A stretch of 63,073 nucleotides of DNA, counting the filler, from Kipferlia bialata (taxonomy: Eukaryota), in NCBI GenBank assembly GCA_003568945.1. It is 7 parts of 6 records of this genome, joined end to end, with 100 filler letters (N's around TTAATTAATTAA, not from the genome) between each part and the next. Parts side by side here need not be neighbours in the genome. Positions count along the whole stretch, not along the records: positions 1 to 6,045 come from BDIP01000792.1; positions 6,146 to 12,279 come from BDIP01000792.1; positions 12,380 to 27,034 come from BDIP01000793.1; positions 27,135 to 41,776 come from BDIP01000794.1; positions 41,877 to 56,516 come from BDIP01000795.1; positions 56,617 to 61,761 come from BDIP01000796.1; positions 61,862 to 63,073 come from BDIP01000913.1. One strand, given 5' to 3'. Numbering within the stretch: position 1 is the first letter of the stretch; each line of letters starts with the position of its first letter. The notes under the pieces are model-generated. The model was given only the letters and a program-made list of their open reading frames with translations, was not told the DNA's origin and did no database searches. The translations under genes were made by a program, and so were the position numbers. Below, one piece after another: positions 1 to 62,020 of this stretch.

Positions 1-213
1 GAGACGGCACCCAAGGGGGGGGGGGGGGGGGGGGGGGGGGGGGTCTTTATTGTATCAGGACTACTATATATATTTATGGGGGAATCTATATGTGCAATAA
101 TATACCTGCCCCAGATCCAACCTTGAGTGCAGGGCCAGACTGGAAATACAGACATACAAATATAATATGATAGAACACATCCAGAGTATATATATAAACT
201 ATATATAAATTAA

Positions 214-3200
214 CCTGCCCTAGATCCACCCTTGAGTGCAGGGCCAGACTGGATATGGCCCTCCTCAGCAGAGCATGGGCCTGCACAAGGGAGGTCTGGG
301 GGTGAGTCACATATGTGCATATTATGTATATTGTATATGAATCATTGCATGTGTGAACAACACATAGGGTATGGTCCTGGACAAGAGAGGTCTGGGGGTG
401 AGTCACAAATGTACACATTATATTATGCATATTGTATATGAATCTTTGCATGTGTGAACAACACATAGGGTATGGTACTGGACAATAGAGGTCTGGCGGT
501 GAGTGTGGTAACAATGAGGTTGTTTCAGGAGTAGTAATGGTACCCGTACCCTCCTCTGCTGCGGTGTCCCCGTAGTCTCCATGGGCACACACACATTGCA
601 GGTGCCATGGGGCCTGGGGTTGGTGACATGCTACACAATATACAAAATAAATATATATATACAGTCTATGTTATACACTACAACGAGCATATACCATCTA
701 CGCTACCTATACCTGATCCCCTCCTCCCACCCATGTGCATCATGTACCTGTGTATACTATACATATACATAATGGACTATCCAACATGTGTATACATCTA
801 TACCTAATCCCCTCCTCCAACCCATGTGCATCATGCCCCTGTATATACTACACATACAGTATATAGATATCAGTGTATATACTTTACTCACCTGATCCCC
901 TCCTCCATCCCATGTGCATCATGCCCCTGTGTGTAGTGTGTGGTGTCATCATTGCAGGACAGCCGCCTCATGTGGGTGTCAACACTGGTGGAGAGGTCAA
1001 CAAGAGTGGAGAGGGAACCCTGAGATAAGAGAAATACATTGAAAGAGAAAACGAAATGAGAGGGAGAGAGAGTAGTACCTGAGACAGGGCTGTGACAGAG
1101 AGTGGTCTGCCCAGATATGTACACAGGACCCTCAATACATGCAGACACAGCCATGCTGCAAGGTCAGTCTCAACCCCTGAGTGGGCACCTGGAGGGTGAG
1201 GACAGAACTCAATGCATCAGGAGTGACAATGGGTATACACGTATATATACACAAGGACTATACTACTGACACACCTTGACTGAACCAGTCCCCTGCCTCT
1301 GCCCCCTCCTTAGGCAGTGCCATTGCTAAGGGTGTAGCCAGGCCAGGCATCCATATGCCAGCTGTGCCCATGCCTGACACACCCCCTGTGACAGGGTGGG
1401 AGGGTGCTAAGGGGGACATACCCCGCTCCCTCTCCCCCTCTCTACCCCCTGGTGTAGATACAGCGGCAGAGGGCACTGGGGCCAGGGGTGATATCTGGAT
1501 CACACTCAGTAGGGGCAGGACGGCATCGACTAGGTGGGAGGCATAGCGACGCCTGGGGTGAATACCGCGAGAAGATCATATATCATCCAAAGATACCCAA
1601 AGGGACACTAATGCACAACCATACCTGTAGTGCATGACCCTGGGGTATAGCACCTCCAGCTTGTGACACAGACCCCTAGTGCTGGACGGGGCACCTAGGC
1701 GGTATGAGGCTACGTACTGGGGGTAAGATGCCACCAAAGAAACGATTTCTTATACAGGCCTGAATTCTACAAATATTGTATTGTTGCATACACTCACCTG
1801 ATACTCGTCTAGCTGCATCAATCACAACACGAAATGAATTCAACAAATACAGCTCTTGGTACAATACACCCACCTGATACTCGTCTAGCTGACTCTGGGC
1901 AACCAGTAGTCTCTCTCGCCTGGCAGTGAGTGAGAGTGCAGGGAGTGTATACTATATACACTGGACTACGTGGAATATCCCCCACCTCTCTGCGTTCTGG
2001 GTCTTGATCTCCTCTGTATCCTTGGTCAGTGTCTCAAGCCTCCTCTTCAGGTGTGCTATCCTCTGCCTCTGGGCCTCCTTCTTGGCCTCTCTCTGTCTTT
2101 CTCTCTCCCTCTCTGCCTCTGCCTCTGTCTCTGCATCAGTCAGGCCCTGGTTACCATGCGAGGCATACCTGGGGGTGGGATGTATGTATATGAATAATTT
2201 ATCGGAATACATATACGCGCCACTAATTGATCCCAACAGATGATACATTACCTTGCTGCTATCTGCTGGTTCAGCTTGAACAGAAGGGCGTCATTGCGAC
2301 GGTTGGTGTGTCTGGTGGTAAATGTATATAGTTGGGCACTGCAGTACTCAAACCAATGAGAGACCTCATTGCATGACAACTCCACATCCAATATATACAG
2401 TATATGTGTATACCATGAAATACATACCTCAGCACCCTTGCCAGTTCGGTCTGTCTCTCCCATCTCTGGTGGCCCATCCTAATGTGAGAAGGGGAGCTAC
2501 CCAATAAAAGCACCATTCCATCAACTACTTCGGCAACTGATATATACAAATATGTTAACTCTCTCACCTCCCCTCCTGCAGCACCACCCTGGGAGTCTCT
2601 GCCCTGCCAGACACAGACACCCTGTGACTAACAGAGGCTGAGGGGGCACACTCGACAGGAAGGTATCCACCACCGGAGGGGGGGTACACAGTGCAGCTGG
2701 GGTCAGGAAAGAATTATTGGGAGATAGTATATCTTTACAGAAAGAGAATCGAACATGGCCTACCTGATGTCCGCTAGCACCTTATAAACTATATAATGAG
2801 AGTCTAACAGCTTCGGATACCTGATGTCTGCCAGCACCTCAGTGATGCTGCCAATCATAGAAGGGTCATCTAGATGGGGCCCAGACACAGCTATGGCGGC
2901 ATGCCCTAGGACATAGGGCAGGGAGGCAGCCACGGACCTGGCCCCAGTGTGCATGTCATACTCGTAGCATGATAGCCTACCCACCAGTGCTAGCAGTGCC
3001 ACAGCAGCATCGGAGGGGGAGACAGAGAGTAGACTGGTGACTAGGTGTCTGGAGTAGGGGATGCCAGAGGCAGTGGCCCTGGCAGGGTGGGTGTGCACAG
3101 AGACAGTGTCCCTGAATATGGCCTCGGGGTCAGTAGGTGGTATGGTAGTAGACACCCTCAACAGACTATATAGAGCAAAGCAGAAGAATATGTCTCTACC

Positions 3201-5988
3201 TTAGTCACATGGTCCCTTGCCATTGGCTCTGACAGGGTGGACAGGGCATGGGATATATATATATATATATAGTATTTACTATATATATATATACATATGA
3301 TATATGCTATCCTCTACCTTTGTGACATGGTCCCTTGCCATTGGGTCTGACAGGGTGGACAGGGCATGGGATATATATATATATAGTATATTGTATATAT
3401 ATATCTATATATACATATGATATGTGCTGTCCCCTACCTTTGTGACATGGTCCTGTGTCATTGGGTCTGACAGGGTGGACAGGGCATGGGATATGGCACC
3501 CCTCAGCATCAGACTGTACCTATCCACAAGGGCAGAGCGGCGGTACCTGGGGGTAGGGAAACAGAGGGGGGGGGGGTATATATTCACATCAACAGATATA
3601 CATATACTAATATGTACCGATACACACTGGCAGACTGGCGGTACCTGGGGATTAAGGGGATGGAGACTGAGAATAGGCTAAAGATCACAAAGACCTATAA
3701 TTAAATGATATGTGTGAGTAGTATATACCTAAACTCCTGCTGTGTCTCAAGGCAGTATGCGTGCATGGCGCCTATGACATCTGCCGGTGACACCCCGCTC
3801 TCCACCCTGCACTCTATACACAGTGCACCCTCAGCATCCACCTTGCACCCTGCATCCAGGGTAGTATTGGAGTGGAGGTAGGGGGAGAGGGGGGAGAGGG
3901 GGGAGGAGAGGAGAGAGGCCACGACGACACACAGGGCAAAGCGGTAGGAGTGGAGGGTGGCCTCATAGGATGAGGGGGCAGAGGCAGAGGCAGAGGCAGA
4001 AGGGGTCGAGGCACCCTCTGTGACACTGGGGGTGGTGTCAGTCTCAATGTCAGACTGAGGACGGACATCACCCCCTGCGCCTGCCTCACCCTCTCCTTCA
4101 CTGGAAGGGCTGGGAACGGTGGTAGAGCTGCTACTTGTCACACTATCCTCAGTCACCCTGTCACCATCTGTCACTGATGGTGTATGTTCCCTCGTCTCCA
4201 CACTGGTCTCAAGGGTTAGAGTATACCAACTGGAGGTGAGAATGGGATATATATCAGACCATAGAGCGAATCCAGTGTAATAACCATCTCATACCTATTG
4301 TTGTCACTGCACACACACAGAGTAGGCTTCGACCGAGAGTGTTCCTTCTCTCCCAGCCTCTGTCCCTCTCTCCCACCCTCTGCATTCCCTGCCCTTCCCT
4401 CAGTGGCATGTGTTGAGTTGAGGGTGTGTAGCAAGGAGGCAAACTGAGTGAGTCCCCCTTCCTCAATCACAGCAGGGGCAGACACATACAGCCTCTTGGG
4501 GCACCCCCCCTCCCCCCTGCCCACCAGCTGTTGCAGCACCCTCTGTAGTCTGTGCATCAAGTCAGCACCTGACTGGGGCAGAGTTAATGGGTCTCTATAT
4601 AGAGTGGGGGCAGGGGATGGGTTGGGGGAGAGCAGCTGGGACACAGCGGATAGATACACCCTCTGCTGCCCCACACTCCACTCACTCTCTGTGCCAGGGG
4701 GTGTGGTGCCCATGCCATGGTTAGACAGGGTGGAGAGGCGATGGGACTCTCGCTCTGCTGCTGCCAACACAGTGGACTGGGAGAAGACAGATCCCGCCAG
4801 CACACCTGGGGTGAGTATAAATAAACATAAATGTAAATGGAGCAAGGTAATACGCATCCCACTAAACATACCATTCCAGTAGACGTTAAATGGCACAATG
4901 AAACAGTCACAGATCATGAAAGGATATGATATACATACACCCACCTGTGAACAGTGACACAGCCTCAGCACATGACTCCAGGGGGGTGGTGAAGGTGATG
5001 CTGGGGTAAGAAGGCAACAACACAAGGGATACCTTTCAAATATATACTGTATTACCTCACCACTGGTCCCCCTATCCCAGCATGTGCACTGGGTGGTGGG
5101 GCCTGACACACGGCATCAGTGCCACCACCCTTGCCACCCTCTCCCCCTGCCTCTTTCTCTCCCTCTGCCTCCTTACTGCACACACTAGTGCTAGAGGGTG
5201 CAGGGAATGACACACTGCTATGGTACCCAGTGGCATATGTGGAGTACAGGGAGGAGGCACTGCGGACGATGCCCTCCGAGGTGCGTCTGAAGACACGGCG
5301 CATCCTGGGGGTGGGGGAGGGTTAATCGAGTGAAACGTATTGTACTCTCACTCTCCCCTTCTATTTCTCTTTGTCTTTGGAAATGTATACTACTATCTGA
5401 TACCTGTTCTGCCTTGTGACGTGGCTGACCTCTGTGTGCATGAGAGCACTCAACAGCAGAGGCACAAGCATCATGTCGGAGGGGGTCAGGCTGGGGTTAC
5501 TGGAATCGTCACCAATATACACTACTACAACACTCATACACTGCACCCTATGTACATTGACAGCGCAAAGGGTGAACTGTATATACACTACTTGCATATA
5601 CTATAGTATGATATATGACACATACTCACCCACTGCACCCCATGTACATTGACACTGCCACCGTGTCCAGTGATGGATCCACACTGAAGGACACGGGGAT
5701 GGGACTGTCGGTGTGGGGGGTGCCCACTGGATATATGTCCTCCTGACCAAAGGCATTCTGCAGCACCTGGGGGACCTTGGGGTTAGACAGTAATCCAAAT
5801 GAGTATGCATATGTATATACAATATCAATGTGTAAGAGGTACTCTGCAGCACCTGGGGGACCTGGGGTTACATACAGACCAATGGGTGTATTGGACAAAT
5901 GCTGAAGACTGCCTCAAAGAGAGTCACAGAATGAGTGTGGGATAGAGACTCTTATAACCACTCAGGTATTGCTGACAGACTGAGATAC

Positions 5989-6026
<38 letters not shown>

Positions 6027-6433
6027 GAGGGGGGGGACACAAAAANNNNNNNNNNNNNNNNNNNNNNNNNNNNNNNNNNNNNNNNNNNNTTAATTAATTA
6101 ANNNNNNNNNNNNNNNNNNNNNNNNNNNNNNNNNNNNNNNNNNNNAGAGAGGGGGGGTGGGGGGGGGGGGGGGGGGGGGGGGGGGGAAGGATACTATACT
6201 AACCTGACTTTGGCTGCAGCCACTGGTACTCATAGCCCCCTGTTGCATGGGTAGGGCAGATGTAGGTGTCAGGTTCCAGTCCAAAGCTGAGTGTCAGAGA
6301 TATATCACGCGACTAGTCAGGGAGGCAGTGCCTCCCGGAGGCACTCGAGAGAGAGACCCACATACATCTGTGCACACACAGAACCTGGAAATACAAATCC
6401 TGGTAACATAATATCATGCTGTCAGAAAACCAT
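214..6433 (-). CDS. Large multi-exon hypothetical protein with a C-terminal coiled coil; weak UVRAG/Atg14-like resemblance; spans the 6046-6145 gap; 3' end probably beyond the window start
   Basis: ATG|GT at 6433-6430, then exons splice in frame (MVLCVHRSLDWNLTPTSALPMQQ...). Later exons with CTCACCCCCAG-type acceptors encode RYRRSALVDRYSLMLRGAISHAL, RQRIAHLKRRLETLTKDTEEIK, RERLLVAQSQLDEYQ, DLAAWLCLHVLRVLCTYLGRPL and AHALLRRAISSLAL. Not every junction was checked. Confidence 0.6.
6046..6145. other. Assembly gap with artificial TTAATTAATTAA linker (same at 12280-12379, 27035-27134, 41777-41876, 56517-56616, 61762-61861)
   Basis: N run + ttaattaattaa + N run, 100 nt each; flanks are mostly poly-G/poly-C or microsatellite. 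Confidence 0.97.
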
Positions 6434-9151: not shown

Positions 9152-12115
9152 CTACAGCCACCTGTCCTGCTGTGACAGGACAGAGCAGCACCGGGGAGGG
9201 GGGGTGCCGCCTGGGGTGAGGGGATTGAGTATGAGAGAGAGTACATATATACTAGTATGTGTGTGAATACCTAGGCCTGTCCCCCCCACGAGGTCCTCTG
9301 TGAACTGGGACTCATCGAACACAGTGTCGCCATGACCAGAGTACACCTGGAAGGTCTGGGGTCAGAGGGGGTACTAATATACACATATTCATATGCAGTG
9401 TAAGACCCAGGTGTATTCACACACATAAACATAAGCATACATTGTACAGTAGCGTGTGTACCTCCTCGGGTGCCTTGGCCCCTGTGTCCCCCAGGAAGTC
9501 AGAGGGGTGGGGGTGGTCGGCTGAGGGTCAGAACAGAGAGTAGAGAACTTGTTTGGACATATCAAGTGTGGCACATAACTCTAAAAATGTAAATATGTAT
9601 AGTGACTATCGTGTACCTGTCTCGAGGTCCTGTAGGGCAGCTAGGCCATCCTCCACTGGATGTAAGAAAGGTGATAGTGAGGGGGGACAGTGATATAAGA
9701 CACAGAGTGAGAGTCACTCAGAGAGAGACATGGCTTCACTCACCCACGTCACCGTCAGGGAAGATGTCGGCGGCTCTCTGGCCAAGGGCAAGTCTAGGAG
9801 TAAGCAATAGGGTAGGGGGGGGGGGAGGGGGATAGAAACAGAGCATCCCAGTAGAGTGGTGACATAGTACATAATGACGCGTCTGTCGTTGCCCACCTTG
9901 AGTCTGGTCTGTCGACGAGTATACTGGACACTGCCCTGACATCGAGGCCGTCCAGCCCCACCCCTCTCCCCCTCCCTGCCCCCTTTCTCTCTCTCTGCCC
10001 CATGGTCAGCATAGATACCCCGGCTATGGACAGACCGCAGATGGAGGCACGGCGGGCCCTGTCTCGGTTGGGGCCAGTGCCGATGGTGTTCTGGGGTCAG
10101 GCATAGGTAGATGGATATACAAATACAGGTGTACATATAGAGGTGAGACACATACAAGTGAATGCTGTGCTACACACATAAAACAGGTGTAGTTCTAATA
10201 GTCACTCAGATATACCACGCACCCTTCTGTTTAGTGCCGGTGTGGGGTGTGCCGTGACTGTCCTGGACACGGCAGGGCACTTGCCAACCTGCGTCACACT
10301 GCCTAGGGGGTCAGACGGAGAGGGAGAGAGAGAGGTGTGTGAGAGAGAGAGAGTAGTAGGATTCACACTCCCAGAAGAATGAGGAGACGGAGAGGACTGT
10401 TCAGTTACGAGTATGCTTGTATGTACATTTGTCTATGTGTCTTCCCTACCTGGGACAATGCCGTACATGGCCTTGGACTGGTTGGACATGGATGAGGATG
10501 GTCTGCGGGAGGGATCAGCATCAACGGCAGAGTGGTCTATCAGACGGCGGCTGGGGTGAGGGGGATGGCAGCATGAGAGAGAGAGAGAGGCAGGCCACGT
10601 ACCGGCGAGTGTTGAGTGAGCGTGTGAGCCTGACACCCGTGTCGTGTCTATCTCCATGTCTGTGTCCATGTCTGGACCCTACCCTGCTGGAGGGCCGGTC
10701 GTGGCTGCTCTCCTGGGGGTAAGGGATAGTCGTATGTATATAAATCAATATATACTGACACTGATACTATATGAAGTTGATCGTGGCTGCTGTCCTAGGT
10801 ATTAAGTACACATACGTGTATATATATACACTATATATATAGTGTACCTTAGTGATGTTGGCGCAGCACCGCAGCTCCCTCTCCACCTCCAGGTCCAGCT
10901 CTCGGTCCTTGTCCTGCTTGTCTCTCTCTCTCTCTCTCTCCCTGTCTCTCTCCCTCTCCTCCTCATCTACCACAATGCTGTCTCCAAACCCTGACCCGAT
11001 ACTGCCAACCAGGCTGTCGCCGTCTCTCTCTCTCTCTCTCTCTGTCTCCATGACACTATCATCTGCATCGCCTAGGACTGACCCTAGCAGCACAGACTGG
11101 AACCCACTCGAGTTCAGGGGGGCAACACCGCTAAAGGAGAACTGACTGGGGGTAGAGAGGGGAGAAGAGTATAATACGCAGTGTAGGGAATAAGGATGCC
11201 TACCTGCAGTTGATGCTCTCTGTGATGCTCCCGTCCATGTCGCTCTCCCTGCCTCTCTCTCTCTCTCTCTGCTTGCCTCTTTCAAGGGAGGTCAGACGCT
11301 GGAGTGAGGGTGTGTGGGAAGTATATGAGAACACATACTATACACACACATACATCTACTAGCATACCTGGCATATAGTGGACGCCGGCCTGACCACGTG
11401 TGTCCTCTCCCTGTTGAATGACCCACTGTCAGCCATGCCGACTGCAGTGGAGGGAGAGTAGAAGGGTGAGGGAGGGGGCAGGGGGGACCCAGTACCGGGG
11501 GGGAGGGGGGACGCAGGGGCGGCATCTGGGGGTGAGGTTGTGACACGTACTCATACCATATACATACATATATATATATACATATGTCACCATGCCCCTC
11601 ACCCTCCAGCCCGTCCAGGCTCTGATGGCTGTGTGTGTTGGACCTGACTAGGAAGGGACTGGCCACAACAGTGCCCTCGCCCAGGCTCAGCTAGGATGAG
11701 AAACATGCACTATACACTACTCTGAAGAGTATAGCCACTTACTTGTAGTACACTAAAAGAGTGTAACACACAGTACCTGGCTTGTCCTCCCCCCCTCAAT
11801 ACCAGAGGCATAGAGACCAGACTGGGCCTGGGGGTCTGCCTCATTGTCCCCCTCCCCTGCCCTCTCTCTCTTCCTGCCCAGTGCCATGGCCATCGAGATG
11901 TCACCCACACTCTGGGGGTCAGAGAGGGAGGGGAATACATACACACCCACCCATATATATACTCATTGACAGACACACAGAGAGAGAGAGTGTGTGAGAG
12001 TGTGAGGGTGTGGTACCTGTGAGCGTGGCAGTGACTGAGACATAGACCTCTGTGTGTCTGTCCCTCTGTGGTATGAGGAGGTGGAGCCCATGGCAGAGGC
12101 AGCGGCCTTGCCTGA
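9152..12115 (-). CDS. Multi-exon hypothetical protein, low complexity with RE repeats; 5' end lost in gap
   Basis: The last exons splice in frame: TRLALGQRAADIFPDGD-VEDGLAALQDLET-ADHPHPSDFLGDTGAKAPEE-TFQVYSGHGDTVFDESQF...QQDRWL*. Confidence 0.55.
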
Positions 12116-12227: not shown

Positions 12228-12279
<52 letters not shown>

Positions 12280-45919: not shown

Positions 45920-46277
45920 AGGTTAACAAGGATGAACATATTGACGTACTAGCTTACTCAAAGTCAATGCTTGAGACGATATTCAACAGGTTTAGGCAGA
46001 AATGGGGAGTGTTAAGATTCAAGAATGAGAAGATTGGACTTTTGTAGAAGGAGGAAGTATTGGAGAGTATAAATGATGGCTCTCAATCACTAAATGGATG
46101 TACATGGGAAAGGGAGCAAACCTGGATGTGTCTGGTATTTCGTACCGTCCAAACTGTATAGACTCTACAGTGGATGTCATCCACTGGATGATGTCTCCTA
46201 ATGAAAGTCTCCCCAGTTCATATACCCTCACCACATTCCCCTATCCAAGCCAGTGATGTCTCTGTTTCTAACTGCCA

Positions 46278-47225
46278 ATGGAGCCTGCCCTAGTGCCTGA
46301 TGTGCGTGTGACTGCCGTTCCTGTCGACCCCTTTACATCAAGGGATGGATACACGTCAACGTACCTCGGAAACAACCAGACCCTGTTGGTGGTGCGTTAC
46401 AATTACACGTCAAACGCAGCGAGAATCCTTACCAAACATGAGGATGGAACAGTATCGACCACAGCCATTGAGGGACCCTCTCTACCTCATGAACTTGGGA
46501 TGAATGTGTATATGCCACTGCTAGCGGTGATTCTGCGCTCCTTTTATCTCCTCGGAAAAATTGGCAGCGAGGTATATGGTCTCCAAGTCAGATCGGAACC
46601 AAGCCCTGGTGGTGGTGACGATAGTCTTGCTGAGTGTTTCTGGATACTCTCTCTTGAGACTATGGTGTGGAGACAAGAGCCGTTTCCAGCAGAGATCCGG
46701 CAGCGCCATTCCGTACACTCTATCTATGCTGCCGGTGTGATATCGGAGTCTGTCTGGATGTGTGTATGTGAACACAGTGGATGCTCTGCCCCTCTCGTTT
46801 ACACGCCTGAAACTCAAGAAGTTGGCAGAGTTTCAGTGCTAGAAGAGTTCCTATCGAGAGGAGGTAGTATTGAGGTAATTTGCTCTGATAGCACCACTTG
46901 GTACTTTTGGGGGGAGGCTCGATCCAGTATGTATTCATATTCCCTCGGTAGAGATGAAGTGAACAGGGTGTCAGTGAGCAAGCCTCTAAGTGGCATCCCA
47001 CAACCACTGGGATCATACTTGTTGAATCATTCATGGGGTCTCGTGTTGTACTCTTCCCTGTCCGGATGTCACAGAAACATAACCACTGATGATATGGGTG
47101 ACACGTTATGGCGTGTGGCAGAGTGTCATGAGATAGGCAACAACCCTGTTATCGTAAAGGTGTCACAAATAGGAGGAGGGGACTCTCTAGTGTACGTGCT
47201 AGAAATTGTTGATGTTGAGTGTTAG
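46278..47225 (+). CDS. Intronless beta-propeller-like protein (315 aa)
   Basis: Clean ORF; STYLGNNQTL, GKIGSEVY, FWILSLETMVWR, LVYTPET; paralog of 47891-48862. Confidence 0.75.
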   Translation: MEPALVPDVRVTAVPVDPFTSRDGYTSTYLGNNQTLLVVRYNYTSNAARILTKHEDGTVSTTAIEGPSLPHELGMNVYMPLLAVILRSFYLLGKIGSEVYGLQVRSEPSPGGGDDSLAECFWILSLETMVWRQEPFPAEIRQRHSVHSIYAAGVISESVWMCVCEHSGCSAPLVYTPETQEVGRVSVLEEFLSRGGSIEVICSDSTTWYFWGEARSSMYSYSLGRDEVNRVSVSKPLSGIPQPLGSYLLNHSWGLVLYSSLSGCHRNITTDDMGDTLWRVAECHEIGNNPVIVKVSQIGGGDSLVYVLEIVDVEC

Positions 47226-47890
47226 AGCAGTGGTTGGTGCCGCCAACTTGGACACTTCAACTAAAATGGGTGAATTTCAAGCACACTGTGTATTTCACAC
47301 TACGAATACACTATTCTAGGTACTATTGTGTCTCTTCTGATTGGTGAGAGTAAACATAGAGTCGGTTATGACCATTACAAAGGAGGAGTGTGTGAAAATC
47401 ACACTGTGGATGTAACAGAATGTGATATTCAACAGCTTCAGACAGAAGTGGCAATACGACGATACATTAGAGGTGTATCAAACACACACAATTTGGTCGA
47501 ACTCGTTGTCCTTGTACATGAGTATTATAGAGCATCATCGGTTTTCGAGAATAGCCATGAGTGTCGCGACAGTGTTACGAACTCATAGAGACATAGTCTC
47601 CACATAGTAATCCTTTCCAGCGCCTTCTGCTCAGTGACTGAATCAGTCAGGTCGCATAGAGCTAAATCCACTCTATTGATGTATACTTGTACTGTCGCTA
47701 CCATACAGTGTTTCTATGGCCCTTCAGATTAGTATCCCCTTCACTGTAGACTCTACAGTGTGACTCACAATCAGGTGCAAAGGTGTATACACTGTATACT
47801 GTATACAGTAAGACATTGTTACAGTACCCTTGGCTAGAATCATATCCTTTAACTATGTCACCCTCTCCTATCCCAACTATAGGCCCTCAA

Positions 47891-48862
47891 ATGGAAAAGT
47901 GCCTTAGTACCCGACGTCAATGTGACAGAGCTGTCCTCTGATCTGATGGCCAACATGGAGACATCAACATACATTGGCAATAACCAAACACTCTGGATTG
48001 GCCATGTGTACAATGAAGAGAGGACTACAGCTGGCATACTGACCATCCACGATGATGGTGCTGTGTCCAATGAGGATATTCCGGCGCCAACCATATTCCC
48101 GGCATATCAGGGTTCCGGTTCTTCTTCCAGCTGGCAGGGAGAATAGGAAGTGATGTGTATGCACTTCAGTTCGAGCCGCAACAAAGAGAGGATGGAACAA
48201 TGGTGCTGTCGCTCCAGTCTTGGTGGGTGTTCTCGCTTGATTCCCACATATGGCGAGATAGGAGGGTAGAGGCCGAACTTAAGGAGAGCACAGGGTTCTC
48301 CGAGTACATGTTCAGAATTGGCGTCATTTCAGAGACTGTTTGGGTGTCTTCCGGGCTCTTCAGAGACGCCACGCCACCAGTTCTGTATGAGCCGGAGACA
48401 GGTAAAGTCAGAGAGGAACCAGTTCTAAAGGACTACAAAGGAAATGGTGGTGCTCTGAGGCTATTCTGCTCCAGTGAGACGACGTGGTATTGGATTGGGA
48501 TCGACAGTGTCGATTCCGACACGAACGTGTACTCATACACATTCAATGCAGCCAGAGTGAGTATGCCGTCGATGGGTCAAGACTGGTCAATGGGTCAAGA
48601 CCGGTCACTGGGTCAATCCTGGACACCCCTCAGCATTTCTCCCCTAGGGTCGTGGGTCATCTTCAACCAACGACGAGCCCTTATTCTGATGTCATACGTG
48701 TCAGGGAGTATTGGACGTCTGGTGGGTCTAATAGGAGCCTCCAGGCACATAAGCAAGTGCGTACGTGTGGGAGAGAACAGTGTTATGGTCTGTGCTGAGG
48801 ACCGTTCCGCTAATCGGGAGAACAGGGTATACCTGGTTGACATATTGGACATCGATTACTGA
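47891..48862 (+). pseudogene. Frameshifted tandem paralog of 46278-47225
   Basis: ATG GAA A(A)GT GCC TTA GTA CCC GAC GTC has one extra A relative to MEPALVPDV. A second shift near 48105-48115 precedes FQLAGRIGSDVYALQ. The rest is open to 48862. Confidence 0.7.
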
Positions 48863-48969
48863 CGTCCAAGCAAGGTGTATATTTGCGTCATAGAGTGAGA
48901 TCGAATAAATCAAGTTGTTGTACTGGTGTAAGCAATTAAGTCGGCCTCTAACTAACACTCCACAAGTTG

Positions 48970-49200
48970 TGGGCCCCACAACCATTGGGCTCTTATGTGT
49001 TGGATCACATATGGGACAACCTCGTGTTGTACTTTCTCCTACCCGGATGTCACAGAGACATATCCACTGAAATAGGTGTCAGGTTCTCGCGTGATACAGA
49101 GTGTCATGTCACGACAGGTAACAACACTATGATCGTAAATGTTGTGCATACGTGGGGGGAGACTCAATTGTACTTGATACATTCTTGACGTTGAGCATAG
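48970..49200 (+). pseudogene. 3' fragment of a third paralog of 46278-47225
   Basis: PQPLGSYVLDHIW..LVLY..LPGCHRDIST..ECH..GNN aligns with PQPLGSYLLNHSW.LVLY..LSGCHRNITT..ECH.GNN. Confidence 0.8.
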
Positions 49201-50448: not shown

Positions 50449-51023
50449 TAGGGCTGGGATTTTGTATAAAAATGCGTTATTATATATATAAAAATGAAAT
50501 GATTATATATATTATATAATAATTTTTGTCTACACCCTTTAGTTGGGATATATACGCGGCTATAAGTCGGTATCAGGATTGTCAGGAGAGCTATAGTGCC
50601 AGATATAGGTGAGATACAGGTGAATAGGGACTAAGAGGAGTGATTTGACAATTTCTAAAGTTGTTCAATTTTGGTCTCTGAACTCACCCTCAGTTTCTGA
50701 AAATCTCTCTTCCCTTCAGTTCACATATATGATGTCTTTCTATGTATAGTATGTGTAACATTGAATGTACTATCACTCTTGCGGGGCGATATATACGCTC
50801 TGATGCGTCAGAAACCCTCAATATTTTCAGGTTTATATACGAATTCAGAATACAGACACCAATGTTGGTTTAAAGTACGAATTTGGAGGTCTTACACCAC
50901 CCTGGTGCACTAATGGACATCTGCAGGGTGTATAGACACCTCCAAAGTATACTTATAATTATATAATTATTATATAATTTCAAATTTTATATATATAAAA
51001 AATATATAGCTGGCCCAGCCCTA
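50449..51023. mobile_element. Non-autonomous hAT-type DNA transposon (MITE), 575 bp
   Basis: 10-bp TIR TAGGGCTGGG...CCCAGCCCTA, imperfect AT-rich subterminal inverted repeats, perfect 8-bp TSD CATACTAG (50441-50448 and 51024-51031), no long ORF. Confidence 0.9.
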
Positions 51024-51036: not shown

Positions 51037-53365
51037 ATGATTCGGATCCCTCTCAGGCCGGTGTCTCTTACAAATGTGCCTGACGGTGACGGCAGAATGG
51101 TGCGTGTAGGGCTGAACCAGGTGTGTGTGGAAAATACCTTCATGCGGCATACATACACATCGATGAAGATATGTACACACTAACTGTGTGCTGTAGTTGT
51201 GTGTCAGTCTTGTGATGGGGTAGCAATGACATGTGTATACGCCATGGTGAGTATCTGTCGTTCGAATTCTCATCATGCCTCCCCAAGCTAACCATGGATT
51301 GATTCACTCTGACTTCCCTTCTCTCTCTCTCTTTCTCCACTTATGTTGCATCTCTTGGGGTTTCATATGCGTCTACATCCTAGTTTCCTCTTACCTCTTC
51401 ATCTTCACTCCTCTCTCTCATGTCAGTGATAGATCTCTCCCTGTGTCTCCCTCCTCTCTCAAGCCTGTTATATCTTGCTGTCTGTCTCCCTCCTCTCTCA
51501 TAGCAGGCCATGTGGGTGGGTCACTAATATCCCTCTCAGTATCACTATACCTTTGGTATTTCTGTCTTCTCTCTCTATCTCTTTCATCTCTCTCTCCGTA
51601 CTTGGTGATGATCTGTCTCTCTTCTGGTGCTTCTCTCCCTCAACACTAGGCCATGTGAGAGGTGCACGCCTCTCGTCTTTATTATCTCTCTCTTCTCTCT
51701 CCATATCGCTGTTCTCTCTCTCAACATTAAGTATTCTGGGTAGGGCACATTCAGGTCATGCCTCGTATTTCTCCATTCTCTCTCATGTGACATGAGAGTC
51801 TCATGTCTAATAGACAGTCTCAAATTGAGACTCAATAATATTAATTAATTTATATATCTCCTCTGAGAGGAGATATTGAAAGACAGGACTCCTCTCTCTC
51901 AATACTAAGTGATGGTCTCTATTATATGTCTAATCTCTCTCATCATTAGGTCCTGTGGGTGGGGCACATTCAGGACAAGGGCCTGGGTGGCCGTTACGCA
52001 AGCTACAACAATCGCAGTGTGTACTCTCTTATCCTCACAAGGTATATGCTCCACCCCATTGTATGCCGGTGACTCTGTCTCTCTTAGGGTCCCTCGTATA
52101 ATCTAGAATGTGACCAACATGGTTCTCTCTCTCTCTCTCTCTCTGATTTCAACACTATTAACTTACTCCCTATATCTTCACTATTAGAAATGCTGACGGA
52201 ACCTACGATGAGGAGATCAGTCTTGCGCCCTGTGGTGCCAGGTACGTATGTATATGGAAATATGTGTAATATACTATATACTGGTATACACTAGTATATC
52301 TAAGAGAATCGCTCATTCAGAAAGTCAAATATTTATGATATATACAGATCATAACATATATGATATAACAGATCATATGTATACAATATGCTAGATATAT
52401 GACATTGTGTATCATATATATATGTGGGTATTGGACACCGAACACTGATGCCAGCGTTCACCTACATTGTGTGGGTGGTTATGTCTACGCATTTTGGAGC
52501 AGTTTCGGCGGTCACCAACCCAGTGACTATCTGGACGTGTTCGACTTGGCCACAAGAGTGTGGCTGCCCTCCTCACGCAACTCTCTCAAGTGGACGTCCA
52601 TGATGATTCATGGTCTGTTTCCGCTTGGAGACAGGTCAGTGACTTCTGAGTAGAGTCTTCTCTCTCTCTGGTTGTCCAGGACTCATGGGAGGTTCTGCCT
52701 AGCTCTCTCAGACTTTTCCACTTTGATCATCTTTTGGCACACCGTTCCTTCTACTGAAAGTTTTGGCTCACACTAGGCTGGTTCTGCATGGAAACAGCTT
52801 CAGGTGCCCTCGCACTGTTGCATATTCACCAGACACGGGCATACCATCTCACATCTCGTTGCCTATACCCAGAGGTCAGTCCGAGTATCATGTGGCAGCT
52901 GACAACGGCTCTGCCTATCTGATTGACATAGACGGACACATTGCTTACGTGTCGGAAAGGTCCGGATACATCCCCCTAGCTTCTCCCAGCGGACACAAAG
53001 TATCCACCGCATGTTTTCACGAGGGAGTCATTTGGACAGTGGGCCCAACTAAGGAGAATGCTCTGCAACAAAGATGGAGAGAGAGGGAGAGGGAGGGAGA
53101 GGTCTGTCTGCTACTCGACCAGTACTCATGTGTCTCTGGTGAGTGGGGTCCCGCCTATCGCCTAGTCTTCCCTGATAGTGTGACTAAGCCAGTCGGTGCG
53201 TTCAGAGCACAGAGCCTGTGTGTACAAGACGATGGCTCAGCTCTACTTGCAGTCACGTCAGGAGACTTCTGCAGGGCAGTTGTGTATACCTTTGACATTC
53301 CCTGTGGCGATGCCCCGGGCGAGGGAGAGTGCACTTACAAACGTTCTGATCCATCACACTTCTAG
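51037..53365 (+). CDS. Intron-containing beta-propeller-like family member, 5 exons
   Basis: MIRIPLRPVSLTNVPDGDGRMVRVGLNQ|VLWVGHIQ...LILTR|NADGTYDEE...|VHLHCVGGYVY...VFDLATRVW...|LVLHG...VAYSPDTG... splices in frame. Confidence 0.75.
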
Positions 53366-53589: not shown

Positions 53590-55882
53590 CTACACGATTG
53601 CAGCCACGCTCTTCTTCCGCGTAGCGATGTGGTGCATGAGTAGGTAGAGCCAGGGCATAGCGCAGTTCCACTCTAGGAGTGCATTAGAGACAAGGGTCAT
53701 GAGCCATGGGGACTCAGAGACTAGGCCATCTGTGGTGGTGGTGGTGGGCCTCAGACCAGTGAAGGCAAGGCAGACCTGAAGATGAGCACGTTACTTCTTA
53801 AGAATTAGATTCACAACATAGTTGAATGACCCAGCCTGTATACTCATCACAGATAATGACACTGATACTGATACTGAGTCAGTGTGCCACCCTCCACCTA
53901 CCTCAAACACAGACTCAACTCCGGTACCAATGGCAAAGACGGACAGGACCTGGTGTCAAAAGTTCAGTGAGACAAAAGTGGGAGTATATGGAACAGTCAG
54001 GGTATCTGAACAATGATGGATAAGTATATATACATGTCGATATAGAGAGAGAGAGTTCAACGGACAGAGACAGATACCTCTGTGGGTGTTGTGTGTCTGC
54101 TGCCGAGTAGCACTAGGTAACCAACTGCAGCACTCAGAAACATGGCCCATCTGGGGGTAAGAGAATGGCACAGGATGAAAGTGCTATTGATATACGGCGG
54201 TAGAAATACAGAGAATGACATGCATTGCGAGACTGTCGAAATATACACTGACCATACCTCGAGTCCGACATCACTCTGCTGATGGTTGTAACATGGTCAG
54301 TCATGGGGTAGGCCTAGGGTAAGAAGGCCAAGACATAGGTGAAGAGGGTTCTGTGACAGAACTTCTGGCATTCAGTGTGAGTATTGTATACATGTGACAT
54401 ATATAGTGTATGTCTCACCTTGTCGAGCAGGCCAGGCACAGTCTGCACCGTGATGAAGAGCACACAGTAGAAGGCTCTACCCAGGTCCCTGTTACGCTTG
54501 TCACACTTCTCACACACATTGCTAGTCAGAGTGACACCCTCTACCTCAGCCTCAGCCTGGGGCTCAGGTCTCACTGCCAGTAGGTCAGGTACCTCAACAC
54601 AGGGTGTCTCTGGTTCTAGTACCACACCAACATGGGGGGCACATGTCGGGTCTGGGACAGGTGCAACAGGTACTATGCTTGAAGGTCTAGATGGGCTAGA
54701 GAGTGTAGAGTTGGTGAGGGAGGGGAATGTCTTGCGGAGCATGAGCATGACAAAGGAGGGGTGCACAACCCCTGAGAGTGAGACAGTGGCTGTCACTGAC
54801 AGAATGTAGTTGTGATTGGGCATGTACTATACTCTGTTATGGCCCAAAACTAATGGTTATGTATTTACACCGGTATTATGAGTGCGTGTGCTAATATATA
54901 CCTGTGAGAGATGAGAGCCAGAGTAGCAGCCACTTGGCACTGATCTCAGAGTCCACGGTCCTGATAAGTCAGAGGATCGTGATTACACATCAAAGAGATA
55001 GTGTGTGGTGTATTGAAGTGATGTTGTAACATGATCATTCACCTTGTTCCCTTCCAGCAGTACCAGATACCGTAGTCCACTGCGTAGTAGATCACAAGGC
55101 CCACTGCACCCAGGGCAAGGGCATGGTACTCACGCTAAGGGTGGGAATAGACACATATATATATAAATACACTGATGTATGTATTATGTTTGAGATGTGT
55201 AGACAGAGTGGAAAGCCCAACTGCACCCAGCGCAAGGGCATGGTACTCACGCTGGAGGTCAGTGCATAGTCTATACTATAGACAGTCATTCCACATGTAT
55301 ATATGGTTAGTATCTATATGGAGATAGTTCTACTGCACCCAGGACAAGGGCATGGTACTCACGCTTAGTATTGGGATAGACACTCACGTATAGCTAGATA
55401 TATATAGAGAGAGTATGTTTAGATAGTGGTATTACCCACTGCACCCAGGGCAAGTGCGTGGTACTCACGCTGGGGGGAAGTAGAACAAAGTATTCACTCA
55501 TATTACATGAGAGAATATATTATATGAGTGTACGATGGTATCGGACAGCTAGCAACCAGTGGTATCAGTACCTTGTAGGCCAGGAGTGCCACCCACACAC
55601 AGAGAGCAGAGATGTCAGCTGAAGGTTAGAATAACAAAGTGTATGTTAGAGAGTTACAAGTTATCACACTTGTAACTCTCTAACATACACTTGTCAAGTG
55701 TGTATACCAGAAATTCTGGTCCAGAATGTATACCTATACATGTATACCAATACACAGGGCAGTGATGTCAGCTGGGATCAGAGGAACTAAACATATCATG
55801 AGAGACTTACCAATGTGTATGGTTGATGTATACCTATGATGTAGGTCCCTGTGAACTGTCTGCACACCACATCAGCAGACAT
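53590..55882 (-). CDS. Polytopic membrane protein resembling an uncharacterised prokaryotic family, ~9 exons
   Basis: In-frame splice: MSADVVCRQFTGTYII...LLAYK|REYHALALGAVGLVIYYAVDYGIWYCWKGTR|TVDSEISAKWLLLWLSSLTG|VVHPSF...|AYPMTDHVTTISRVMSDSR|WAMFLSAAVGYLVLL|VLSVFAIGTGVESVFE|VCLAFTGLRP...TLVSNALLEWNCAMPWLYLL...*. Confidence 0.75.
55637..55692. repeat. Perfect 25-bp inverted repeat with 6-nt loop inside an intron
   Basis: AAGTGTATGTTAGAGAGTTACAAGT-tatcac-ACTTGTAACTCTCTAACATACACTT. Confidence 0.95.
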
Positions 55883-56664
55883 GTCAGTCTAGTACACACC
55901 AGTGGCTTAGAGGAGAGGTGTCATGTCAAGAGTCCTTATCAGTTACTGTAGAGAGACAGTCACTGAGAGTCTGTCAACAGTGATCTTGAGAGTGTCAACA
56001 GTTGTCACAGTTGATGGTGACAAGTTGTCACTGTTGACTCAACAGTGTGGAGTCAACTGTGAGTTCAGCCATCAGTCTCTTGAAGAGACTCTCTTCCTAT
56101 TAGTGAGAAAGAGACTACGTCTGTGATTTTAGCCTAACCGTCTTCACCCTCATTAGACCCCGATGCTCAACCACGGAGTCCATGGTCCATGGACCCTGCC
56201 AACACTCTCATACCTGTCTCTCTGATTCGCCTCTCGATTCTACAGTCGAATCGACACCGCAGCGATTCTTCTGTCGGTTGTAGAGGCCGAGTCAGACAGG
56301 CAGTGGAGGCTGGTAGGTGGGTATGGAATTTAGAGGTGGTAGTAATGTACTGGAGAAGAGGTCAAGGTATAGTGAGCATCTCTTTGTACAGTCTGCTGGA
56401 TTCAAAGTGAATACGATCATGTACCGGTGGTACCTTACCCAGGCATGGTAAAATTGGGAATACTTCCCAACCTTCCCAATCCACTTAGATTGGGACGTTG
56501 CCGAGAACGAAAATGGNNNNNNNNNNNNNNNNNNNNNNNNNNNNNNNNNNNNNNNNNNNNTTAATTAATTAANNNNNNNNNNNNNNNNNNNNNNNNNNNN
56601 NNNNNNNNNNNNNNNNTTCTCCTTCCTTTTTCCCCCCCCCCCCCCCCCCCCGCTCTCCCCCCAG

Positions 56665-58968
56665 TGTGTCACCTATTGGGAGGTGTTCCAGAGTACAGAC
56701 TGGACTCTGGCAGCCAGGTATGGTAAGGGGGGGGGGGGAGACAGGACCATCGTATATGCACACCGACACATTATTAGATATACTGTTTTTTGCTTAGTGG
56801 GAGGCCAGGGAAACCATGGCCTGTATGGACAATACACTCCTCTCTCCCCTCACCCCAGGCTCGACTGTTCTGTACGGAAGGCCAGAAAGCTCAAGTCGGC
56901 ACTGAGTGAGTTGTTCCTCAGGTATGGCTTCTCTCTTATGTACTTGTATTACCACTCGAGACCCTTGGTATTCTACTCGGTGTCTCCTGCCATACATGTC
57001 CACCTCCACGTCTGCCAATGTGAGTGCAAGACATTATAGAATACTCATACAGATCGAACCCCCACTTTCGCGTCCTTCCCCCCGAGTTTCTGCCAGAGAG
57101 ACTGCACCCCAGGTATATGGAAACCACCTCTACCCACCCTGTACTGTCTTGAGCAGTATCGATATACTGCGAATACACGGCCATAATTATTACCCTCATG
57201 CTTATCCTGGTTATGTATGTGAATCTTACTACTTATCTCTCACCCCATGCTTGCCCTGGATGGGGGTGCCATTGACCAGGGTCTGCTAGGTGGCAGGGGC
57301 CTCAAGATGGGGAGGTGCGGCGCTATCATATTATTATACACATCCCCCATTAGTCGTTCCGACTAGTATATTGTGTTGTGAGTGCCATCTCACCCCCAGG
57401 ATCTATGAGCTGAGTGGTGAGGCCGCAGCCTGCAAGACACAGGTAAGGCACATAGAGATCTACACTGTTCTATCAACTCCCCGACACATATACCCTATCT
57501 CTAATGTCTCTCTCCCACCCCAGATTGTGTGCAGTCTCTTAGTCCGTGCCCAGTTGCCTGTCAGCAGAGGTGGGCTGGGGGGGTCGGCACTCATAGTCTA
57601 CACAGAGGTGGGGGGCTCTCTTCATACCACTGTCCCCTCATCTTACATATTTACCATATACATACTATATATAGATTCATAGTGCACACTGAGGCATGTA
57701 GATAGCGTCGCAATCCGTGTGTGTCTCCCCTCACCGCCAGGGCTCCTTCCCCGCTGAGAGGACCATGCAGGTGGCCAGGGGGCTAGGGACAGGGATGGAC
57801 CCCATGGCCAATCTGCTAGGTATATATGGCATGTATACATATTCATATTACTCTATCCACCACTATATTCATGACCCCCACCCCCTCACCCAGTGAAGCC
57901 TGCCATCACGGCTGAAGACCTCCATGCCACGATGGTCACAGGTCTAGGCCAGGTGCTGTCCAGCTCATTCAACAACCCGGCCCAGCTGCCAGTCAGGTAC
58001 GGAGATACTCACATATACATAGGGACACTCAAGTGTATTCACCCGCCCTGCCCTCTGACCCAGGCTGGTGATCATCGACAGCCTGGCTGCCCCCCTCCGG
58101 ACCAGATACGACAGAGACGAGATGGGGGAGAGGCAGACCATCATCGAGGTAGGCATAGCATAGGGTATTCCATCTGTGAGTGTGTCTATAGGACATGATG
58201 ATGCGGTATTGGAATTGTTTTGATTGTACCTCCCCTCCCATCCCCAGGATATCTTCTCTGCCATCCGTCTCCAGATGAGGAGCCATGCCTTTGTGTGCTT
58301 GATCACCAACCAGGTGACTGATCTCTTTGACCCAGAGCCAGAGTATGCAGCCAGGTATGGTGTACAAAGTGTTGTGTCAGTGTGTGAACAATAATGTTTG
58401 CTCAGGTCATCCTCTCCCACCCGTAGGCTGTTAGAGATGGCAGCTGACAATGTGTTCCCAGGGGTAGATCCTCACAATGCACCAGGGGACCCAAGAGATA
58501 AGGTTCATAGTACTCAAGTATATACACTAGAACACTGGGCAGTGTAAGTACCCTCAGTATCCTCTGTATACCCCGTTACCCCCTCACTGCAGGTGCTGAG
58601 CAGTGGCCGGTACATGACCCCTGCCCTCGGTGCCACTCTATCCAAGCACTACGACACAAGACTCATGGCGGCAAAGGGAAGGTGGGTAGAATGGACACAT
58701 ATGAGATAGTAATATCTCCTACCATGCGTCCCTTTCATCTCCCTCTGACCCCCAGGCCTGTCATGAACACGGGTGCCCTTACTACCCGGTCTCTACACCT
58801 GCTGTGGGACAGGGAGAGAGACCTCACACCCGGAAAGGTGAGTGGTATAACTTCGATAATGTATGAATCGATTCACATCTATGTACCCTTGATAGTTGTT
58901 TTGCTGTGGCCTCACTCCAGGTGTCCTTTGTGGTCACTGAGAGTGGGGTGGTGGGGGTGGAGGAGTAA
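56665..58968 (+). CDS. XRCC3: Rad51 paralog, XRCC3-like; 5' end in gap
   Basis: RLALDGGAIDQGLLGGRGL, IYELSGEAAACKTQ (Walker A region), RAQLPVSRGGLGGSALIVYTEGSFPAER, RLVIIDSLAA (Walker B), CLITNQVTD, PALG; ends VSFVVTESGVVGVEE*. Confidence 0.85.
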
Positions 58969-59582
58969 GGAGGGCCCCGTTACAACAGTAGGTGTCGACA
59001 GTGGAGGCAGGAGGCAACTCACCCTCAAGCAGTCATATGCTGCGACCTCACATGGTATCTGCTGATGGTGTATGGAAGAAGAAGTGACCCGGCTAGACCC
59101 TGATGAACATCCCATGCGGGGTGTGCTACCATGAATCCAGTCAGATGGGTGTCTGTATCAATGCCACGTGGCCAGACCGGCACCATGGCTATCCCATTTG
59201 GCCATGGTATGGGGTCGGCATGTCTTTATACGTATATATACCATACGTAGAAGCAGCGACCCAGCCAGAGTGGAGGCTTATAGTGGACTGATGCCTGGAG
59301 AGTGTGTTCAGTGGTGTGGATAGGCAGGTTCAGGGGGGGATACCAGCCGCCTGTATTCACTCCTCTCCTCCTTCCAATACTCTTGTGGAGTCACTCTTGA
59401 GACATGTATCATATTATGATCGCTTACAGCTGGCTAATAGAGTGATCTCTCCCATTCTTCTCACTTACTGTGCTACTATTTGAACTAGGTTGTTCTATTA
59501 AATAGGGTTGGCAGTATCATACACGTTCCTCGACCGTTCGTGCCTTTAGCCCATGTCTAAATGTTTGCAATACTAGCGTATC

Positions 59583-62020
59583 TCACTCACTGTGGGTGTG
59601 GTGCGGGGACTGTCTAGAGTGAGTCAAGCGGATATGGAAGTATTCAGTCCGGTATAATCACTGCAACCCCACCTGTCCCTGCATCTGTCCGTGCTGTCCC
59701 CCCTGGGTATGGGTATGGGCATGTGCCTCAGCAGAGGGGTGGGGTCTGAAAGAGGGGGCTCCCTCGGGGACATGCTGGGGTCAGAAGGCATGATGATGGG
59801 TATTTGGTATCTACATAATACACATATACACATATACACACGGTCATCCACACACACATGACTACATACGTAAAGAGACAACCCCACCTGTTCCACGGGA
59901 GCTGAGGAGTACTGGCTAGTGGGAAGCTGGGGTGGGAGGGAGAAAGGAGAGGAAATATGGATGTGTTAACAATATGGGAGACACAGTATTTGTTGGGTAT
60001 ACATATTGTGTACCTGCTGTTCGGGTCCTCTCTCTCTCTGCCCCCTCTCTCTCTGTGTGTTGATCTGGCCTGGGTGCTGGAAGTCTATCCCCAGACTGGC
60101 CATGGCCATGCACAGCTGGGGTGAGGAGGGGAGAGTGTGTATATATATAGAGAGAGAGAGGGCAACAGGGGGTCAGAAGGAGAATGGGGTAGCAATGAAT
60201 AGAGTCCACCCACCTTTCTGAACCTGTCAAAGAGGGCAGGTGGGAGGTCTGTCCTGGCCAAGATGTGGTTGAGGCCACTGACTACACCTGGCAGGGCATT
60301 CACCACAGCCACCAGACACCGGCCCTCCCTGAGGGTGAGACAGAGGAAGGGGGAGACATGGTAATAATAGTAAGTGCCACCTCACTGGCAGCATGGCCTC
60401 TGCTCATATGTATGCTCTATCTCTCTCTCTCGCTATATATACACATATACTCTCTCTATATCCTATCAGCCCATACCTGACAGGCAGCATGGCCTCTACC
60501 AGTGCCAGTCCAACAGACAGTCTCACAGCAGAGGTCTGCATGTCGGCAGAGTTGTCGGTGAGGGCCCTGGGTGGGTGAGAAGGGATGAGATGTCGGATAG
60601 ATAATGTGTCCTCTGATGAGAGTTAGAGTGGACACACACTCTCACTCACTTCAGGGCCAAGGTTGATATGAGCTCATTGGCTCCCAGCATAGGTCTGTTA
60701 TCGGACCTGGGGGTGAGGGTACAAGTAATAAGGGGAGATAAGGGGAAGCACAACATCCAGAGGCAAATACATATATCTGTGTGCAAGTGGTATGCCCCTA
60801 CCTCAGTGCAGGGCATGTCTTGATGAGTCTGGAGGAGAGGGGGTCGACCTGGGGGTACACAGCCTCGGACAGGGTCATGAAGGGGTAGTCCCTGGGGTCA
60901 GAAAGGGGGGTGGATAGGTGACCAACCAACTATGACACAATATGTATGATATATGCCCACCTTATGAGCAGAGCCAGTGTTGCCTCCACCCTTGGGGACA
61001 GGGGGTGGCCAGAGGCAATGAGTCTGGCGAGAGTGCCTGGAGGGTTAGGGAGACAGGGAGGATGCATAGCACAAGACAGGTAAACGCACTAGGCCTATAC
61101 AGACATCAATACAAATAATATATATACACATCAATACAAATTGTATATACACATCTATATACATTCTATATACATTCTACATACCCACTAGCGTTGTGAC
61201 ACAGAACATGGCGGGTGCTGTCTGGTGGAGTCTATCCCCCAGGGCACACACTATCCTGAGGGAGATGTCCAGGAGAGAGGTGGCAACGGGGGAGTGGGCA
61301 CGCAGCCTAGGGGGTGAGAGACTCGTCTCGGTGGGTGCCATATGCTACACAAGATACAACAGTATATATACATATATATGAATGTATATATATATATATA
61401 TGTACAAACCTGGACGCCCTCTCCATGTCGTACAGCCTTGTGAGCTGTGTCACCCTCAGGAACTGCACCCAGTCCTGGAACCTGCCAATGCCGGTGGGGG
61501 CCTGGGGGTCAGGGGTGGAGAGGGTCGCATCGTGCGAGATATGATCCAGATACAGGTAACAAAGAGCACACATAGACGAGAATCTATGAGAACTATTGTA
61601 CAATATCCTATACTGTGGTACCATGTACTGTCTGCCCCCCACCTGTATCCATATCTCTGTGTCCATGTTGGACTGCAGGGCACCCAGCATGTGGGCCAGA
61701 CACACACAGAGTAGCCTGGGTGAGAAGGGGGGGGGGGGGGGGGGTTGAGGAAAACAGGGGANNNNNNNNNNNNNNNNNNNNNNNNNNNNNNNNNNNNNNN
61801 NNNNNTTAATTAATTAANNNNNNNNNNNNNNNNNNNNNNNNNNNNNNNNNNNNNNNNNNNNGGGGGGGTGGCCGCTCCCGGCCCCGCCCTCCTTGCCTGA
61901 CCCCCTGTCCGACACCGACACGGGCATGCCCACCCAGGACAGAGACTCCTCCGCTCCGTCCTCCGAGGTGTCCTCCTCAGCATCCTCCACCTCGGTCACG
62001 CGGGTGGCCTCGGCCGCTCT

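Follow-up and report, generated by a model that had tools for sequence, protein, structure and literature searches.

Junction-anchored copies of exon ends in introns of Kipferlia bialata carry an excess of silent differences

Tandem duplications that run across an exon–intron boundary are known as 'mirages' in amphioxus, where they are reported in Adh3, the globins BflGb6 and BflGb9, troponin C and PGBD5 (PMC3087553, PMC3902484). In the parts of these accounts drawn on here, mirages cover either boundary, often keep the AG or GT, have units of 10–72, 60, 108 or 150–160 base pairs (bp) and differ in unit number between haplotypes whilst splicing is undisturbed. Intron gain by tandem duplication (the Rogers model; Gao and Lynch, 2009, via parts of PMC3087553 and PMC3488318) likewise involves short internal duplications that include splice signals. 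Here we describe head-to-tail copies of exon ends inside the adjacent introns of Kipferlia bialata, a fornicate protist with a reduced spliceosome, for which the parts of PMC6679479 consulted mention no such repeats. All counts refer to one 63,073-nucleotide (nt) stretch of this intron-rich genome (the window), made of assembly pieces with N spacers between them. The Kipferlia case works like a mirage, in that tandem units of 57–219 nt cross the boundary (58 junction-anchored copies), both boundaries are duplicated and AG or GT is usually kept, but it fails whole-unit likeness and adds a coding-like divergence. Units are 81–100% identical over their full length in BflGb6, whereas the intron part is alignable in only 16 of the 58 copies here; the Kipferlia copies are dense (32 of 159 introns, and 12 of 20 in one gene); and they show a strong silent bias, a word ('silent') that occurs 0 times in the main text of either amphioxus paper. 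Unlike intron gain, existing introns lengthen, and the donor-type copies at least make no new intron or exon. The layout, which the original prediction had taken to be undescribed, is therefore already known from amphioxus; for silent bias in mirages, as for mirages in any protist or metamonad, no report was found in the literature searched (the original Adh3 account lay outside this scope), and the genome paper of the species has no match for 'duplicat'.

Self-comparison of the window gave many short direct repeats, spaced 57–430 bases apart and almost all anchored on splice junctions. Donor-type copies repeat an exon end and its GT downstream, and acceptor-type copies repeat the branch point, AG and exon start upstream, the branch motif (consensus CTCAC, CTGAC or CTTAC in the introns of the window) lying close to the acceptor. 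Three of 61 hand-curated candidates were discarded, two for poor anchoring (38350 and 35656) and one with only 6 nt (39187), leaving 36 donor-type and 22 acceptor-type copies in 40 arrays, one per copied exon end, with one copy in 25 arrays, two in 12 and three in 3. These lie in nine gene models, in keeping with the at least nine genes predicted, and the six examples quoted in the prediction were all recovered with their positions and codon pairs. Copies are 12–72 nt long, with a median unit of 100 nt, are 73–100% identical to the exon in their exon-like part and cover 0.05–0.92 of the exon, whole-exon copies being absent; of the 14 pairs that are informative, 11 have the nearer copy more similar to the exon. 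Of the 159 introns, which belong to 11 gene models, 32 hold an anchored copy of the exon end next to them, and swapping exon ends between introns (12 rounds) left 0–3 introns with a copy. Besides the gene with 12 of 20, two genes have copies in 7 of 18 and 6 of 10 introns, and the remaining eight have 0–2 each. Introns with copies have a median length of 251 nt versus 87 nt without, an increase of roughly one ordinary intron length per copy. Copy-bearing introns are TA-richer, and the distal junctions fall at dinucleotide runs in 14 of 58 copies against a 25% background, with no enrichment of the kind that breakage at microsatellites, as originally proposed, would imply.

Reading frames were set by a small gene finder whose training set was four clear genes, mismatches in the copies playing no part in the choice of frame, and 13 exons in its output (copies called as exons, or doubtful) were taken out by hand before introns were counted. 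Frames in two genes match the public proteins P0001 and P0002, hypothetical proteins of K. bialata, those of the gene at 42357–45916 were taken from the gene-finder model alone, and Pfam named 2 of the 13 proteins or exons tried.

Differences between copy and exon are enriched for silent changes beyond what selection on the exon alone would give, as had been claimed. Of 121 unique single-base codon changes, 78 (64%) are synonymous, whilst 25–27% would be expected under neutral decay and 40–43% with constraint on the exon only. The two wrong frames gave 14 of 124 and 16 of 130 synonymous changes with 7 and 9 new stops; read in frame, the 58 copies contain no new stop. Four-fold sites are changed at 82 of 343 (24%) and non-degenerate sites at 79 of 1152 (7%), a ratio of 0.29 (0.18–0.43; P(≥0.5) = 0.003 with arrays resampled, the procedure relied on for the main inference because per-site p-values assume independent sites). 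The ratio is 0.30 (0.17–0.51; P = 0.03) with nearest copies only and 0.23 (0.13–0.35) between neighbouring copies, and it is stable after leaving out distal codons or extreme copies. A residue is altered in 69 of 149 changed codons, and the amino-acid changes are mildly conservative (p = 0.02) and scarcer in the 12 nt beside the junction, where they affect 16 of 212 codons against 59 of 389 elsewhere (p = 0.007). Of the changes found in the nearest copy alone, 8 of 9 are silent (p = 2e-4), as are 9 of 11 of those private to the exon, which are similar in number and kind. The copy at 36843–36909 has 10 changed codons, all silent and one of them a TCA/AGT switch of serine. Third positions account for 56% of changes, which is not clearly above 50% (p = 0.06), so that the silent excess stands but the third-position excess predicted alongside it does not by itself. 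With a dead copy next to an exon under full constraint, a ratio of 0.5 is expected, and pairwise values below 0.5 point to purifying selection on both lineages (according to the relevant part of PMC1251493). The low ratio and the private silent changes therefore indicate that the lineages of the copies themselves evolved under coding constraint during much of the divergence. The silent excess is solid in the pooled data and borderline in the most conservative subset.

Strong codon patterning and AT-rich introns could lead one to attribute this excess to a mutational or compositional bias striking the third positions of neutrally decaying copies. Matching trinucleotide context (38 strata) leaves an odds ratio of 6.2, which largely refutes the idea. 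Silent changes are moreover balanced in direction (24 GC>AT, 20 AT>GC; 39 versus 41 by codon commonness) whilst non-degenerate changes lean to AT (36 versus 14, p = 0.013 relative to composition; p = 0.09 for the difference between the two classes), and kept splice sites would be left unexplained, making such a bias very improbable.

Those splice sites are well preserved. GT is kept in 34 of 36 donor-type and AG in 21 of 22 acceptor-type copies (55 of 58 in all), whilst random decay with an equal number of differences would keep 16 and 8.6, and site scores are 4.8 and 11.5 bits versus −2.1 and −3.3 under such decay. From the fourth base on, identity to the true intron is about 45%, and the 16 alignable copies are those in which the 40 intron bases beside the site aligned better than 95% of random introns. 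The copies carry valid but different splice sites, as alleles would.

Coding-like divergence and valid splice sites could also mean that alternative or non-canonical splicing brings copies into the translated part of some transcripts, which would expose them to direct selection at the protein level. Twelve of the 22 acceptor-type copies have an in-frame GT that outscores the weakest 5% of real donors and is a possible donor for a new exon, and P0001 runs through one copy (5837–5861), in another frame. No donor-type copy (0 of 36), however, has an in-frame acceptor of real-site quality, as the prediction had said of most, so that canonical splicing cannot use these copies, which nevertheless have the higher proportion of silent changes (58 of 83, against 20 of 38 in acceptor-type copies). 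Unit length modulo 3 is flat (18, 23, 17), only 7 of 58 copies read through in frame, and coverage stops at 0.92 of an exon. Of the 16 copies in the genes of P0001 and P0002, the public models skip 15; being predictions, the models are not proof, and this skipping lends weak support because the published models of the species come from AUGUSTUS with transcript hints (as stated in part of PMC5874029). The RNA runs X2, X3 and X5 gave no contig over 54400–55900 and runs X3–X5 a share of 0.07–0.18 of another stretch, neither of which bears on splicing. Translation of the copies, the unusual splicing of the original options, thus seems quite unlikely, and its canonical form is structurally excluded for donor-type copies. 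Tandem exon duplication with mutually exclusive exons does not describe the arrays either, given the same partial coverage and missing acceptors, and recursive splicing was rejected by argument, since it would impose no codon constraint and most exon ends lack a branch motif. Two candidate in-frame microexons of 18 and 27 bases, at 39170–39187 and 39267–39293 (minus strand), would repeat a peptide motif of this repetitive protein and are candidates for copies becoming exons; the second would be opened by an AG within copy 39267–39305 that scores below real acceptors.

How the silent excess arose we can only infer. The explanation we favour, at a probability of roughly 0.5, is that the copies are rewritten through unequal exchange with other alleles of their gene, diverged but functional. 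The local tandem duplications of about 100 bases, which cross an exon–intron junction and lie inside the intron, would be harmless while the outer splice site remains in use, so that only partial copies of exons would survive. If a copy mispaired with the true exon end of the homologous chromosome, unequal crossing-over or gene conversion would occasionally exchange the copy's junction-side part for functional sequence of the other allele, importing its donor or acceptor along with the adjoining intron, and could gain or lose units. Because exchange would bring in functional sequence, the differences from the exon would be mainly allelic and filtered by selection, under a thinner layer of neutral decay, and the copies themselves would be functionless. 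Allelic rewriting would in this way account for the valid but different splice sites, the fewer replacements near the junction and the two layers of change. In part of PMC8516963, fornicates are described as lacking Ku and Rad51A and having two Dmc1 copies, which, as a conjecture, may favour repair from the homologue.

A toy model (two copies, two alleles and 150 haploids, with only the exon under strong selection) favours rewriting from alleles. With same-chromosome conversion it gave ratios of 0.79, 0.60, 0.70 and 0.54, and with recombination or other-chromosome exchange 0.26, 0.44, 0.29, 0.20, 0.53 and 0.21. Other-chromosome exchange at a diversity of 0.12–0.2 yielded a proportion of silent differences (pS) of 0.19–0.24 and a ratio of 0.20–0.29, against 0.24 and 0.29 observed, and only there did a pS near 0.2 and a ratio of 0.2–0.3 occur together. 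These figures bear directly on an accordion-like process on a single chromosome, in which conversion and collapse within one lineage purge damaged copies because they sometimes become the exon end. Such a process would agree with the kept splice sites, the scarcity of amino-acid changes near the junction, the greater likeness of the nearer copy and the unalignable spacers, which suit old arrays homogenised in their exon-like part only. Its simulated ratios of 0.54–0.79 in all four settings are nonetheless too high for it to suffice alone, and come near 0.5 only as pS falls to 0.01; three copies would bring the floor to about 0.43 by hand calculation, yet 25 of 40 arrays hold a single copy; and collapse, one may argue, takes intact and damaged copies out of the surviving pool without distinction. 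We regard it as unlikely, and with it the predicted exchange of silent cassettes with the exon on the same chromosome.

Several observations weigh against rewriting from alleles. Its fit depends on a silent diversity assumed to be about 0.12–0.2 and on sex in this species, and two of the six settings with recombination or other-chromosome exchange gave 0.44 and 0.53. The interval for nearest copies touches 0.5, the donor-type, acceptor-type, one-gene and two-public-protein-gene subsets each include 0.5 and are not significant alone, and three of five indels in the copies break the frame (two keep it). Spacers are alignable in only 5 of 23 copies with at least 92% exon-like identity, so that a far faster divergence of introns than of silent sites would be needed. 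Strong decoy splice sites would also be expected to carry a cost. No allele was seen: in run X1, 54400–55900 is represented by one contig with no second haplotype at 80% likeness, such contigs dropping bubbles, and a metagenome scan with the ribosomal protein gene found no relative (best identity 53% among 73 loci). Very high silent diversity is on record for Paramecium (in part of PMC11334263).

The source could instead be diverged paralogs or a second subgenome, for which equal silent bias and valid splice sites would be expected; copy 36843–36909 differs at 7 of 11 four-fold sites, which is high for alleles. One exon from each of two genes, searched against public proteins, nevertheless matched only its own gene, run X1 contains no similar contig at 80%, and a hidden donor would be needed for each of nine unrelated genes, so that we consider this source improbable (a further protein search, with exon 37116–37257, gave no match). 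Of the prediction's first option, capture from a divergent allele or paralog at fragile microsatellites, the allele is hence the part retained as the best reading.

Tandem stacking of haplotypes by the assembler would produce allelic sequence of just this appearance, and the assembly is fragmented. The X1 de Bruijn contig (5497 nt, depth 457), however, spans 54400–55900, with two arrays and four copies, at zero differences and with no other letters, and exact repeats there reach 22 nt at most, not long enough to confuse 31-letter words. The copies, moreover, start within an exon after intron-like sequence, a layout foreign to any allele. This check covers 2 of 40 arrays, and since X1 possibly is the source DNA it bears on the assembly rather than on biology elsewhere. 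An artefact of this kind has very little to recommend it.

Silent cassettes of antigenic-variation systems are untranslated coding copies that are exchanged with an expressed copy by gene conversion. They resemble the present copies in staying coding-like while untranslated and exchanging with the expressed copy, but here the copies are 12–72 nt long, lie in introns of their own gene, in unrelated genes, and differ silently instead of diversifying a protein; nine unrelated gene models with silent-biased changes do not make an archive for one surface locus. It is conceivable, if rather doubtful, that the copies form a maintained reserve of working exon ends, kept coding- and splice-competent by selection on copies entering the product, through frequent DNA-level swapping or non-canonical RNA joining between direct repeats, in a protist whose spliceosome is reduced and which has neither Ku nor Rad51A. 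Duplicated splice-site constructs made by Reed and Maniatis in 1986 have the same geometry, and the outer site was reportedly used when the exon adjoining the inner site was truncated; such a result would account for the persistence of partial exon copies alone, although that work used artificial constructs in mammalian extracts.

Intron sequence that evolves as coding sequence does without being translated breaks the rule of thumb that a ratio below 0.5 marks functional duplicates, and the arrays provide a natural setting in which to test how strong duplicated sites are discriminated by a reduced spliceosome. If rewriting from alleles is correct, the genome archives other alleles inside its own introns, the diversity, recombination and cryptic sex of a free-living Giardia relative would be readable from them, and introns would have a route to growth in steps of about 100 bases.

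The arrays are distributed as follows. On the minus strand, in the gene of P0001, exon 215–295 has one donor-type (106–147) and two acceptor-type copies (366–391, 467–492). Donor-type copies accompany exons 892–1019 (804–847, 713–756), 1874–1919 (1798–1815, identical) and 2821–3122 (2764–2782, with two silent changes), also on the minus strand. Exon 3438–3546 has donor-type copies at 3318–3374 and 3200–3256 and an acceptor-type copy at 3613–3644, and exon 5630–5775 a donor-type copy at 5538–5562 and the acceptor-type copy at 5837–5861, whose status is uncertain owing to P0001. That protein continues across the N spacer at 6046–6145, so some spacers are gaps within one assembly piece and not unrelated joins. 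Exon 10603–10712 (minus) has a short acceptor-type copy (10781–10794), and the plus-strand exons 15865–15948 and 16115–16219 have acceptor-type copies at 15780–15803 and 16046–16064. Three short, identical donor-type copies (34010–34023, 33934–33949, 33851–33865) belong to exon 34087–34167 on the minus strand.

Fourteen arrays lie in one low-complexity gene on the minus strand. Its acceptor-type copies are at 35934–35964 (exon 35795–35857), 37773–37799 and 37880–37906 (37649–37716), 39919–39945 and 40006–40032 (39803–39857), and 41074–41087 (40946–40996). Donor-type copies belong to exons 36225–36266 (two, identities 35/35 and 33/37, array 36023–36266), 36591–36639 (36464–36500, 36353–36381), 36944–37054 (36843–36909 and 36725–36787, the latter with an in-frame 3-nt insertion), 37472–37532 (37355–37381), 38232–38306 (38108–38150), 38661–38702 (38558–38588, 38464–38494) and 39057–39095 (38945–38970, 38827–38851), all changes being silent in the last two arrays, and further to 39415–39480 (39267–39305, with a 4-nt deletion), 40339–40406 (40184–40215, decayed) and 41539–41586 (41444–41487, 41345–41388).

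The gene at 42357–45916, on the plus strand, has nine arrays. Exon 42357–42432 is followed by a decayed donor-type copy (42474–42519), exon 42741–42883 by three (42922–42990 with an in-frame 3-nt deletion, 43045–43116, 43169–43202) and exon 44070–44159 by two (44225–44285, 44358–44390). Acceptor-type copies precede exons 43501–43572 (43376–43413) and 45480–45758 (45417–45430), and both types flank exons 44600–44659 (44494–44505; 44714–44729) and 45161–45230 (45069–45101; 45284–45313). Also on the plus strand, exon 51950–52041 has an acceptor-type copy at 51731–51758, upstream of which two more-decayed copies of acceptor and exon start (near 51650 and 51507, within 51487–51680) were left outside the count. 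In the gene of P0002 (minus strand), exon 55043–55134 has acceptor-type copies at 55213–55251, 55332–55363 and 55435–55469, an array whole in the X1 contig. Exon 55572–55618 has one at 55752–55771, and exon 60477–60566 a donor-type copy with two silent changes at 60381–60401, both on the minus strand.

On the plus strand, the last codons before a stop (45884–45920) are repeated twice in the downstream flank, at 45973–46010 and 47424–47451, where there is no splice site; the nearer repeat again has silent changes (TTC/TTT, AAG/AAA), which suggests that the process acts at coding borders generally. Two or three similar intron-poor open frames follow in tandem at 46278–49200 (plus), the first without a Pfam match and one with a short in-exon peptide repeat near 48575–48610. 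The segment 20461–24401 (plus) encodes a clathrin adaptor small chain (PF01217), an intronless ribosomal protein uL1 and an SPFH/Band 7 protein (PF01145), the last with copies in 0 of 7 introns. The gene model at 57247–58965 (plus), with copies in 0 of 10 introns, resembles a Rad51-family recombinase paralog, two short exons of it giving no Pfam match. A perfect 25-base inverted repeat with a 6-base loop occupies 55637–55692, within an intron that also carries a copy, and intergenic AT-rich inverted arms of 47 bases at 50477–51001, 74% complementary and about 430 bases apart, may be a small non-autonomous element.

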